A stretch of 10,696 nt of DNA from a virus (taxonomy: Duplodnaviria > Heunggongvirae > Uroviricota > Caudoviricetes): positions 1-10,696 of IMG/VR virus record IMGVR_UViG_2534681978_000009; one strand, 5' to 3'. The stretch's first letter is position 1; the number at the start of each line of letters is the position of its first letter. A program made the position numbers and the translations under genes. The notes below the pieces were generated by a model. It was not told where the DNA came from and did not search any database. It worked only from the letters and a program-made list of their open reading frames with translations. Positions 8,131 through 8,443 of the stretch are shown in pieces.

Positions 8131-8443
8131 ACCAAAGAGTAGTTGGCTTTGGGGTGACGTGAAGTGCAGCTGCACGACGGCAACCGGAAGATAAGCACCC
8201 GGCGCGTCACCGCCAAAGTCAATTCCATAGGCGTTATGCAGCCGCCACCATATTCAAGAAAGCTGCACAAGAGGTAGGAGGATTTATGTGAATACTTACA
8301 TTCAATTGAGAGATTAATTAAATAGAACTGATCGAGCAGAGTCCATGAAGGCTCATAAATGCTCTTCCATCCCCGTCTAATTGGCGGGGAAGGAAACCAC
8401 TTTGTAATAAAAAAATTCCAAAGTTGTTTCATCGGAGGTCAAC

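Follow-up and report, generated by a model that had tools for sequence, protein, structure and literature searches.

The N leader of a CUS-3-like lambdoid prophage is built from two unrelated parts, a long lambda-type stem at 8145–8220 and a 206-nt insertion at 8224–8429 that carries a Shine-Dalgarno sequence (SD) followed by a start codon and an immediate stop. We put at about even the chance that this leader is a mosaic in which a lambda-type processing stem is joined by a mobile, non-coding cassette acting in cis on N. Expression after infection or induction begins with N, whose level gates the whole lambdoid early programme, and in lambda the N leader is a textbook example of how transcription elongation, RNA processing and translation are coupled. 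The sequence-only reading of this DNA had treated the leader as one long native unit; instead, its extra length is a portable insertion of 206 nt that contains the SD-AUG-UGA element.

The window, by which we mean the whole 10,696-nt stretch of DNA analysed, is a CUS-3-like lambdoid immunity region with the gene order cI, tIMM, PL, nutL, N, and positions 8131–8443 are part of its untranslated PL-to-N leader RNA, framed by the following features:

8015–8050, + strand: PL promoter and transcript start (-35 TTGACC at 8015–8020, 17 nt, -10 TAAATT at 8038–8043)
8090–8129, + strand: nutL (boxA GCTCTTTAACA at 8090–8100; boxB hairpin CCCGC-CGAAAT-GCGGG at 8114–8129)
8434–8749, + strand: N Shine-Dalgarno (GGAGG, 8434–8438) and the N gene (8444–8749, ATG at 8444, 101 aa)

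PL was the sole sigma-70-like promoter found in a promoter scan of 7850–8800, and the module itself contains neither a promoter nor an intrinsic terminator. The transcript start at A8050 was inferred by alignment with the annotated pL start of phi21 (phage 21), and the leader is therefore 394 nt long, in agreement with the roughly 390 nt first estimated; the 5' end of the PL transcript reads AUCAGCAGGACGC, identical in lambda. The window's nutL aligns to annotated nutL/boxA sites in HK620, HK140 and phi21, and the N product, whose translation contains an arginine-rich motif, matches PHROG 271 (anti-termination protein N-like, E = 3.4e-36). An Rfam scan of the entire window, covering group I and II introns, riboswitches and known phage small RNAs, returned 0 matches at E <= 1.

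Two sequences in the leader, GGTGACG (8153–8159) and CGTCACC (8205–8211), had been proposed to pair around a 12-bp palindrome, GTGCAGCTGCAC (8164–8175), in a structure reminiscent of the RNase III hairpin of the lambda N leader. All three lie at those positions, and the pairing is real and beyond chance, within a stem that is longer than had been recognized:

8145–8220, + strand: long terminal stem of 17 bp, from fold and homology (8145–8161 paired with 8203–8220, G8212 bulged)
8132–8152, + strand: small upstream hairpin, CCAAAG-N9-CUUUGG, with a 3' arm in common with the long stem; the two pairings are mutually exclusive

Positions 8145–8221 fold to -37.7 kcal/mol (z = -4.24; 0 of 200 shuffles equally good), with a minimum free energy structure that equals the centroid and takes 41% of the ensemble. 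The stem encloses two small hairpins, at 8164–8175 and 8184–8202. The first of these is the palindrome, which is present but folds only as a 4-bp hairpin with a 4-nt loop and is not conserved in other leader types; a pairing between it and GCUGCAC in the module was rejected because the palindrome is missing from those leader types. The long stem was seen in 10 leader types, lambda included, with 15–19 bp, interiors of 41–128 nt and a single bulge after base pair 8 common to all 10. The inner helices vary in sequence among these types yet remain complementary (GGUGACGUG, GAUUGGAUG, GGUGUGUC, GAUGCGGUG and GGUGUGUG, each with its exact complement). At the small upstream hairpin, P22-type leaders have compensatory CCAAAC/GUUUGG and lambda has CAAAGC-AGAA-GGCUUUG. 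We conclude that the processing stem is conserved as a scaffold, whose interior can be exchanged freely.

In lambda, RNase III cuts the double-stranded base of the N-leader stem, parting nutL and the N/Nus/RNA polymerase complex from the N ribosome-binding site. Lambda and the window agree in the sequence at the base of the stem (GGCUUUGGGG.../...CACC-N-CCAAAG), in the single bulge that follows base pair 8, in the location of the stem on the PL transcript, in having a small competing hairpin immediately 5' of the stem, and in the N SD lying 3' of it. Written out, the stem base is GGCUUUGGGGUGUGUG...CACACACC-A-CCAAAGCU in lambda and GGCUUUGGGGUGACGUG...CGCGUCACC-G-CCAAAGUC in the window, in both cases between nutL and the N ribosome-binding site. 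The interiors differ, with 41 nt and two small hairpins in the window against 90 nt in lambda, and the inner 9 bp are unlike in sequence; the window also has 206 nt extra between the stem and the N SD, giving a predicted processed 5' UTR that is long and structured rather than about 25 nt as in lambda. By this alignment the window stem is a homologue of the lambda N-leader RNase III-type stem, which takes the proposed likeness beyond resemblance, and by analogy with lambda it is most likely processed by RNase III. The N-gene leader appears among listed RNase III targets (PMC5371410), and lambda N is described as autoregulated through nutL, with RNase III tied to repression by the title of the cited Wilson 2002 (PMC5725501). 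The stable 96-nt RNA that P22 makes from its leader (PMC13397905) is indirect evidence for cleavage of this kind.

The second part of the leader is the inserted module, bounded by direct repeats:

8224–8429, + strand: inserted leader module, 206 nt (boundary ambiguous by 1 nt), absent from HK620
8213–8228, + strand: left direct-repeat copy, CCAAAGTCAATTCCAT, from alignments, doubling as the 3' strand of the stem
8418–8432, + strand: right direct-repeat copy, within hairpin H-f

At the module site, HK620 reads ...CCAAAGTCAAT followed by CATCGGAGG with no bases between. The module is also absent from phi21, lambda and P22, and the leaders of HK620, phi21 and lambda measure 188–223 nt. Among 50,697 phage records the module is found in CUS-3 and HK140 only, and among phage records matching the intergenic region query coverage is at least 80% in CUS-3 alone (79% in HK140). 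It occurs in about 80 viral and metagenomic contigs (IMG/VR plus metagenomes) and in 159 of 5426 complete E. coli genomes (~3%), with carriers that include the K1, UPEC and APEC strains UTI89, RS218 (the CUS-3 host), APEC O18 and NRG 857C. The median E. coli genome has one module place, all inspected copies lie ahead of N, and a covariance model of hairpins H-d, H-e and H-f found no second copy in the window or related loci, that is, one copy per phage. The module sits behind at least five upstream leader types and before at least four N variants (N start sequences), is flanked by an 11–16-nt direct repeat in every case (in locus L042 the copies are a perfect 14-nt match, CAAAGCCATTTCAC) and keeps a fixed register relative to the N SD in all copies aligned. 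Searching IMG/VR with the 3' block alone gave no new loci, and the module halves therefore never separate; a GTDB scan of one genome per species, using a module pattern without the start-stop, gave only 3 unrelated matches, and the module is therefore absent from the species representatives. Taken at the level of sequence, the cassette has spread into several N leaders by recombination and moves between related phages.

Neither of two familiar classes of mobile element accounts for the module. An insertion sequence or miniature transposable element was rejected, as the module has direct repeats with no inverted ends and every inspected copy precedes N, and a group I intron was rejected since there is no Rfam intron match and the fold is a row of simple hairpins. 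The module is of Azoarcus-intron size, and with one choice of boundary the 5' exon would end in U and the intron in G. In E. coli 55989 the leader holds a second, unrelated insertion, about 245 nt long, that brings an SD of its own and a 3-codon ORF; an Rfam scan of the 55989 leader gave a single chance snoRNA match (E = 6.8).

Within the module, the sequence-only reading had picked out a start-stop element with a strong SD, which is present at the positions reported and overlaps a short reading frame:

8276–8291, + strand: start-stop (AGGAGG at 8276–8281, AUUU, AUG at 8286–8288, UGA at 8289–8291)
8288–8317, + strand: GUG mini-ORF overlapping AUGUGA, 9 codons (VNTYIQLRD*), ending in the TTAATTAAATAG block

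The arrangement GGAGG-N3-9-ATG-stop arose in 5 of 2000 dinucleotide shuffles of the leader (0.25%), and its occurrence at 8277 is the only one on both strands of the 10.7-kb window. AGGAGG-N4-AUG-UGA is invariant in all true homologues, both in 33 distinct sequences and in locus L083 and 17 metagenome copies that were found by patterns without the start-stop. The sole change in the block is A to G in the spacer, and the exact 18-nt SD-AUG-UGA block is retained while alleles and flanks differ by 20–27%. Judged by this conservation, the start-stop is real and under selection. The fold of the entire leader is likewise beyond chance (z = -4.93; z = -3.03 for 8213–8460 alone).

The accompanying suggestion that ribosomes would load here without making a peptide fared less evenly. 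Loading is plausible from the conservation and the predicted structure, in which the stretch is mostly single-stranded (and fully so in the centroid fold), yet the SD is predicted to be only 36% unpaired; that no peptide is made is uncertain, because the overlapping GUG or an adjacent AUG opens a 9-codon ORF. Other alleles read AUG-UGA-AUG and then have a 9-codon ORF (MHNFKTEVN, MPTFNFEIN, MHNFKSEEK), whereas the window allele has AUA at the second AUG. An upstream AUG at 8236 opens a 13-codon ORF that is not conserved, and no ORF of at least 8 codons is common to alleles A, B, L014, L042, L059 and L083 on either strand.

Two known kinds of minimal ORF invite comparison. Described E. coli start-stop (minimal ORF) cases likewise have a Shine-Dalgarno, an AUG and an immediate UGA, in an AUGUGA context with an overlapping GUG. 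They lie inside genes or at gene starts, whereas the window's is part of a phage 5' UTR and precedes N by 153 nt; unlike them, it belongs to a mobile structured RNA, stays unchanged between diverged alleles and is known from sequence only. The bar minigenes of lambda, which lie on the PL transcript, are AUG-AUA-stop ORFs of two codons that have a Shine-Dalgarno and work by peptidyl-tRNA drop-off. They too are tiny ORFs with a strong SD on the leftward early transcript of a lambdoid phage, but they have two sense codons and a different location and sequence, and peptidyl-tRNA drop-off is impossible for AUG-UGA.

The module also folds into hairpins, four of which are listed here:

8237–8267, + strand: H-a, UGCAGC/GCUGCA with a variable C/A-rich loop, all 6 pairs invariant
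8334–8364, + strand: H-d, GAGCA...UGCUC with an inner helix, three pairs with compensatory changes
8365–8395, + strand: H-e, UUCC-A-UCCCCGUC / GGCGGGGA-A-GGAA, no U-tract behind
8393–8430, + strand: H-f, GAAAC..CUUUG..AAU / AUU..CAAAG..GUUUC, ending 3 nt 5' of the N SD

In the alignment, 99% of module helix cells are paired, compared with 37–45% in slid controls, and 5 pairs show double compensatory changes, compared with 0–2 in slid controls, a covariation of modest power given about 5–7 independent sequence lineages of the module. All nine sequence variants of H-e fold (-17.8 to -25.2 kcal/mol) with their changes compensated, and the terminator scan did not call this hairpin. In H-f, P22-type copies replace C-G by U-A, a compensatory change, and C-to-A variants make the helix perfect. 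G-U pairs put the functional strand on +. This covariation marks H-d, H-e and H-f as conserved structure. H-a and the hairpin beside the stop codon are invariant, which is conservation without covariation, and the fold of the module's 5' half varies between alleles.

How the module might bear on N translation was approached by modeling. Upon processing, the predicted accessibility of the N SD goes from 0.44 to 0.62 in the short leader and from 0.39 to 0.38 in the long leader, which suggests that the module alters the response of the N start site to processing; the thermodynamic model showed no clear switch. A switch between H-e/H-f and an SD-sequestering hairpin (GUUGUUUC with GAGGUCAAC) was rejected, since the pairings exist with no covariation and leave predicted accessibility unchanged. 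A second nut site (boxA-like UGCUCUU plus hairpin, 8360–8390) was rejected because its hairpin loop does not resemble boxB and the motif itself is base-paired within H-d/H-e. The put RNAs of HK022, pairs of adjacent stem-loops in the PL and PR leaders, render RNA polymerase resistant to termination; the module resembles them as a structured RNA in a lambdoid PL leader in which H-d and H-e, about 31 nt each, abut, but module-bearing phages also have N and nutL. A put-like antiterminator was rejected, as the H-d/H-e/H-f covariance model had no match in the HK022 immunity region (24–31 kb) and no PR-side copy in the window or related phages.

Our best guess is that the cassette is a cis-acting 5'-UTR module that would tune N expression, a role and a direction that we infer. 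It is placed precisely between the stem's 3' strand and the N SD, and, being transcribed solely within the PL transcript, it would therefore be the 5' UTR of the N mRNA after stem processing. RNase III would cut the stem at 8145–8220, separating the nutL complex from the N ribosome-binding site. A ribosome could load on the strong, invariant SD-AUG-UGA and either terminate at once or re-initiate on the adjacent 9-codon mini-ORF, and H-d, H-e and H-f might afterwards determine how stable the processed mRNA is, how far it is exposed to Rho or how accessible the N start site is. The module is missing from most relatives.

More tentatively, the cassette may be a horizontally exchanged plug-in 5' UTR, consisting of a ribosome-parking start-stop and three hairpins, that rewires N control, with the N leader a hotspot for RNA-module swaps. 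Such a plug-in could, for example, free N translation from its coupling to RNase III processing, or tie read-through into N to ribosome loading. A hotspot would fit the stem interiors, which vary from 41 to 128 nt, this cassette and the insertion of about 245 nt in 55989.

We think it unlikely that the module is a functionless relic, formed when unequal or illegitimate recombination duplicated the stretch immediately 5' of the N ribosome-binding site and captured a decaying fragment from the early region of another phage. On this reading the captured fragment could be, for example, the start of a lost gene, and the module later hitch-hiked by homologous recombination at the conserved CCAAAG boundary. 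The flanking direct repeats fit such an origin, as does the resemblance of the left repeat plus AGGCG..AUG(8236) to a decayed N start region (CCAAAGT..CAT.GG..ATG); the module is moreover the minority state among relatives, its 5' half folds inconsistently between alleles and the CUS-3 authors annotated the whole interval only as "boundary sequence". A relic would not readily explain why the exact 18-nt block survives in such diverged alleles, or why three hairpins are kept via compensatory double changes with 99% pairing against about 40% in controls. In addition, the same phages do not differ in the flanking leader or in the N start, and the module alleles are therefore old and maintained.

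Similarly unlikely in our estimate is a reading in which the translated leader mini-ORF, rather than the empty start-stop, is the functional unit of a classical leader-peptide attenuator, working via Rho-dependent termination or downstream folding. N expression would then respond to translation capacity and also, via nutL, to N itself. In 4 of 4 diverged alleles a 9-codon ORF begins no more than 6 nt from the start-stop, in differing frames, and the TTAATTAAATAG block (8314–8325) closes all three frames. At AUGUGA sites both codons serve as starts, and re-initiation follows RF2-dependent termination (PMC9841429). At 394 nt, the untranslated leader offers Rho enough length to act, and 8170–8269 is C-rich and G-poor (C/G 1.5–1.7), but the downstream region is heavily structured, which is poor for Rho loading, and no terminator was identified. 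Neither peptide sequence nor frame is conserved, AUA replaces the second AUG in the window, and AUG-UGA alone is invariant.

A rather improbable alternative is that the module, or the stem-loop once excised, gives rise to a stable small RNA that acts in trans on host or phage targets in lytic growth, with RNase III or RNase E freeing it from the PL transcript. During P22 infection the equivalent leader yields an abundant, stable 96-nt RNA with the 3' end ...ACCAAAGCCAUUUCA, 16 nt 5' of the gene 24 AUG (PMC13397905), and prophages are rich in small RNAs (PMC4104026). The hairpin loops also have conserved single-stranded blocks, for example TTAATTAAAU, along with C/A-rich loops. Against this, the module has no promoter of its own, no intrinsic terminator and no U-tail for Hfq; nothing in Rfam matches; the C/A-rich loop differs between alleles; the register to the N SD is always fixed; and the most conserved block is a ribosome-binding site plus start codon, not a typical seed. 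A link to the prophage anti-sRNAs AgvB/AsxR, prompted by CAAACACA in allele B, which is complementary to GcvB, was rejected because the motif is missing in the window allele and the AgvB/AsxR RNAs map to the PR' moron site. Pas sRNAs were rejected because their genomic context differs.

Processing of the stem at 8145–8220 by RNase P, as a hairpin- or tRNA-like substrate instead of or besides RNase III, is very improbable. The 3' strand of the stem does offer a helix, one bulged base and CCA in 10 of 10 leader types, like a discriminator plus CCA, locus L083 has a T-arm-like GGTTCGACTCC directly before the CCA region, and phi80 M3 RNA is an example of the hairpin-like RNAs of phages that E. coli RNase P cleaves (PMC5499578). 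ARAGORN found no tRNA in the window and none at the leader site in 10 related loci, where the only tRNA lies elsewhere (L074 3660–3742). The CCA is base-paired in the lower helix, the window interior has no T-loop, and a 17-bp helix is a classical RNase III substrate, as which the homologous lambda stem is reported.

A last candidate lies on the opposite strand:

8043–8432, - strand: antisense ORF of 129 codons, a PGAP "hypothetical protein" in some genomes, judged spurious

That this is a real protein-coding gene is scarcely credible: PGAP, the NCBI annotation pipeline, calls it in several genomes, NCCP15648 among them (protein WP_139840865.1), but makes no antisense call where the allele is 80% or 73% alike, all other alleles (B, L014, L042, L059 and L083) have a broken frame, the ORF runs antisense across PL, nutL and the entire leader, and the G-U pairs point to selection on the + strand RNA. 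The RefSeq "hypothetical protein" antisense to the N leader is thus probably not a gene.

In about 3% of complete E. coli genomes, N is thus preceded by an additional conserved RNA cassette that contains a start-stop. If, as we favor, the cassette regulates N in cis, it would constitute a natural, transferable bacterial start-stop/mini-ORF element under clear selection, and it may provide a handle on prophage induction in pathogenic strains.

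The window carries a lambdoid immunity region in the orientation opposite to that of the usual lambda map, with these features:

7009-7194, minus strand: cro
7275-7925: LexA-like cI repressor (PHROG 4, E = 3e-64)
7924-7943: intrinsic terminator
8015-8020 and 8038-8043: -35 (TTGACC) and -10 (TAAATT) of PL, the sole promoter-like site between 7850 and 8800
8090-8100 and 8114-8129: boxA and boxB hairpin of nutL
8444-8749: N (PHROG 271, anti-termination protein N-like, E = 3.4e-36)

CUS-3, from E. coli K1 strain RS218, is the closest phage and matches at 98.7% across the entire cI-N interval; its authors annotate this interval only as 'boundary sequence'. 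Alignment to the annotated pL start of phage 21 places the PL transcript start at A8050, beginning AUCAGCAGGACGC as in lambda. The leader is therefore 394 nt long, close to the roughly 390 nt estimated in an earlier, sequence-only reading, and every motif that reading had named was recovered in place. RNA structure prediction found the whole leader to be more stable than shuffled sequence (z = -4.93), with a z-score of -3.03 for the part from 8213 to N+17. Beyond the leader, the gene directly 3' of N varies among otherwise near-identical prophages (the window and related loci L001, L006 and L007): a 149-aa PHROG 3054 protein of unknown function in the window (8758-9207, plus strand), ral in CUS-3, an Nmad5-family nucleotide-modification protein in one E. 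coli prophage, and small hypothetical proteins in others. This site appears to be an exchange point for accessory genes (morons).

Aligned with the leaders of CUS-3, HK140, HK620 and phage 21, the window's leader is visibly a mosaic. The 188-nt HK620 leader is colinear with it through ...CGCCAAAGTCAAT and continues from the next base as CATCGGAGGTCAACATG; at this junction the window, CUS-3 and HK140 carry 206 additional bases (8224-8429). The leaders of phage 21, lambda and P22 are likewise short, and the published 96-nt P22 leader RNA ends ...ACCAAAGCCAUUUCA, 16 nt ahead of the gene 24 start (PMC13397905). Since the 206-nt module interrupts an otherwise colinear leader, the nested inverted repeats and the start-stop mini-ORF, previously described together, belong to two separate elements.

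The first element is a stem at 8145-8220. Segment 8145-8221 has one dominant fold (-37.7 kcal/mol, 41% of the ensemble, z = -4.24) that none of 200 shuffles equaled in stability. Its 17-bp helix pairs GGCUUUGGGGUGACGUG with CGCGUCACC-G-CCAAAGUC, G8212 being bulged, and the GGTGACG/CGTCACC pairing noticed earlier is the middle of this longer helix. The stem encloses two hairpins (8164-8175 and 8184-8202), the first of which had been described as a 12-bp palindrome; as RNA it forms a 4-bp hairpin with a 4-nt loop. The lambda leader has, at the equivalent position, GGCUUUGGGGUGUGUG ... CACACACC-A-CCAAAGCU, where RNase III cleavage is placed near +88 and +197, within the lower helix. Ten leader types were compared, those of the window, phi21, lambda and seven IMG/VR prophages; all have a terminal stem of 15-19 bp, with a bulge right after the eighth base pair and an interior of 41 to 128 nt. 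The inner helices vary in sequence (GGUGACGUG, AUGGCGCG, GAUUGGAUG, GGUGUGUC, GGUGUGGCAGG, GAUGCGGUG, GGUGUGUG) and the complement is kept in each, strong comparative evidence for an RNA helix.

The hairpin is thus a known kind of element, a conserved, processing-type stem homologous to that of the lambda N leader, and this homology upholds the likeness to the lambda RNase III hairpin that had been suggested. In lambda, by the second-hand account of two papers (PMC5725501, PMC5371410), RNase III acts on the N leader at the homologous stem, and N autorepresses its translation via nutL, a repression that the enzyme modulates; by homology, RNase III would cleave the window stem. Alternatively, RNase P might process the conserved stem as a hairpin-like substrate, as the E. 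coli enzyme does with phage RNAs such as phi80 M3 RNA (PMC5499578). The 3' strand in all ten leader types (8203-8215 in the window) consists of a helix, a single bulged base and CCA, resembling a discriminator plus CCA, and in the diverged prophage locus L083 (about 6075-6115) it is preceded by a T-arm-like GGTTCGACTCC / GCTGGTTCGACTCCAG; however, ARAGORN detected no tRNA at the stem site, and the CCA of the stem is base-paired. Just upstream, a small hairpin at 8132-8152 (CCAAAG-N9-CUUUGG) uses the same CUUUGG as the long stem, so the two structures would be mutually exclusive during transcription. P22-type leaders show the compensatory CCAAAC/GUUUGG in this small hairpin, and the lambda equivalent is CAAAGC-AGAA-GGCUUUG; this hairpin may correspond to the weak tL0 signal that has been noted in lambda (PMC7315355).

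The second element, the 206-nt module, is portable. Among 50,697 phage records it occurs only in CUS-3 and HK140, and among 5426 complete E. coli genomes in 159, always on the chromosome and at a median of one copy (for comparison, the window's nutL/stem type occurs in 520 and N relatives in 1096). True homologues made up 64 of the 67 IMG/VR contigs matching the start-stop 18-mer. A 5'-part pattern lacking the start-stop recovered the same IMG/VR set plus one new diverged copy (L083), and a pattern without the start-stop identified 18 true copies, 17 of them complete, in metagenomes and none in the GTDB one-genome-per-species representatives. A 3'-part pattern added no new locus, indicating that the module travels whole. 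Upstream of it lie at least five stem types, three nutL regions and several immunity types; downstream, at least four N start sequences, including that of P22-type gene 24. In every case the module is bounded by a direct repeat, CCAAAG(Y)(Y)..TTYCAY, whose copies match imperfectly; the left one forms the stem's 3' strand and the right one precedes the N Shine-Dalgarno (SD) sequence. In one related prophage, L042, the copies share a perfect 14 nt, CAAAGCCATTTCAC, the exact sequence at the P22 leader RNA end (cf. PMC13397905). No terminal inverted repeats were found at the module ends, and recombination at a duplicated target, inserting or removing the module, accounts for the repeat pattern better than transposition does.

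The module is a conserved, non-coding, structured RNA whose register relative to the N ribosome-binding site is fixed. Its two main alleles are 73% identical, and their recombinants match the window at 80% and 97%; the alleles are evidently old, since the phages that carry them do not differ in the flanking leader or the N start. Allele differences gather in loops or are compensated within stems. Across 33 distinct aligned sequences, the proposed helices had 99% of their cells paired, against 37-45% in controls with partners slid by 1-3 columns, and five pairs showed double compensatory changes, against 0-2 in controls. The hairpins are as follows:

8237-8267: H-a, invariant and hence conserved but unproven
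Small hairpin containing the UGA of the start-stop: likewise invariant, conserved but unproven
8334-8364: H-d, supported
8365-8395: H-e, supported; nine sequence variants, all folding (-17.8 to -25.2 kcal/mol)
8393-8430: H-f, supported; ends three bases before the N SD; rare C-to-A variants give a perfect helix

G-U pairs in several helices point to plus-strand RNA as the selected strand. The fold of the 5' half of the module differs among alleles. Alternative pairings, in which the two CUUUG copies are contested by three copies of CCAAAG or GUUGUUUC pairs with GAGGUCAAC, were set aside as lacking covariation support.

Other identities for the module fared poorly. No ORF of at least 8 codons is common to the diverged alleles on either strand. 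An antisense ORF of 129 aa (8043-8432, minus strand; WP_139840865.1), called by PGAP/RefSeq in some genomes, runs opposite PL, nutL and the whole N leader; its frame is broken in all other alleles, and it is probably a false gene call. Scans of the module detected neither a promoter of its own nor an intrinsic terminator (no U-tract follows the G+C-rich hairpin at 8370-8390); it is transcribed from PL only. A search of Rfam gave no match at E <= 1. A covariance model of the 3' half found one copy per phage and no match in HK022, lambda, HK620, phi21 or the PR side of the window; the single copy and the lack of an HK022 match argue against a put-like pair of antiterminator RNAs.

Within the module, all true copies agree on AGGAGG(A/G)UUUAUGUGAAU, also the ones found by patterns without the start-stop; the only change seen in this block is an A to G in the spacer of L083. 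The strong SD with ATG-TGA at 8276-8291 picked out by the sequence-only reading is therefore conserved throughout. Of 2000 dinucleotide-shuffled leaders, 5 contained GGAGG-N3-9-AUG-stop, and the two strands of the window hold a single instance, the one at 8277. The start-stop falls between H-a and the hairpin that follows, and the centroid fold leaves it single-stranded; by the partition function, its SD is only about 0.36 unpaired. Ribosomes bind to start-stops in E. coli, and in one case the gene that contains the start-stop is modestly attenuated (bioRxiv 10.1101/520783); we found no description of a start-stop in a phage leader in the literature searched.

SD-AUG-UGA is the sole invariant translational unit, but the site, proposed to load ribosomes without making a peptide, is not simply an empty ORF. 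In the window allele, GUG (8288) opens a 9-codon ORF ending at 8317, and AUA stands in place of a second AUG; in other alleles a second AUG directly after the UGA also opens a 9-codon ORF (MHNFKTEVN, MPTFNFEIN, MHNFKSEEK). The conserved TTAATTAAATAG (8314-8325) provides stops in all three frames. AUGUGA is an ambiguous start: in E. coli, translation at such sites can begin from either codon, the AUG or the GUG that overlaps it, and a restart at the GUG is promoted when RF2 terminates translation at the UGA (PMC9841429). A live alternative is that the functional unit is a short leader ORF that is translated. The earlier observation is confirmed and its interpretation partly supported. The start-stop sits within an undescribed, mobile leader cassette, and the conservation of this cassette argues for function.

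Two further features of these leaders concern short ORFs. One, from AUG8236 (8236-8277 in the window), has invariant first codons MQPP(P), a proline run, and a length of 13, 17, 37 or 52 codons by allele, with a different ending in each; a GUG replaces its AUG in prophage locus L010. Its place relative to the left repeat is that expected of the N start, so a former start site may have left this ORF as a remnant. The other is a second, unrelated insertion of ~245 nt (733-975) in L119, an E. coli 55989 prophage with the window's leader type, located between boxB and the CCAAAG/CUUUGG hairpin and extending the leader to ~640 nt. This insertion also has a strong SD and a tiny ORF (AGGAGGTGCCGTA ATG GTG CAC TAA), occurs ahead of the stem in four other loci (L041, L051, L030, L052), and gave no Rfam match.

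If the stem is cleaved, the module would become the 5' UTR of N mRNA. The three hairpins could then act together with a ribosome that is either parked on the start-stop or engaged in translating the mini-ORF. Their effect could be to shield the 5' end left by processing; to keep Rho from a leader twice the usual length, of which 8170-8269 is C-rich and G-poor; or to set the accessibility of the N start site. In predictions, processing raises the accessibility of the N SD from 0.44 to 0.62 in the short HK620 leader and leaves it unchanged in the long leader (0.39 to 0.38). As this accessibility is predicted to rise only in the short leader, the module may insulate N translation from the processing event.
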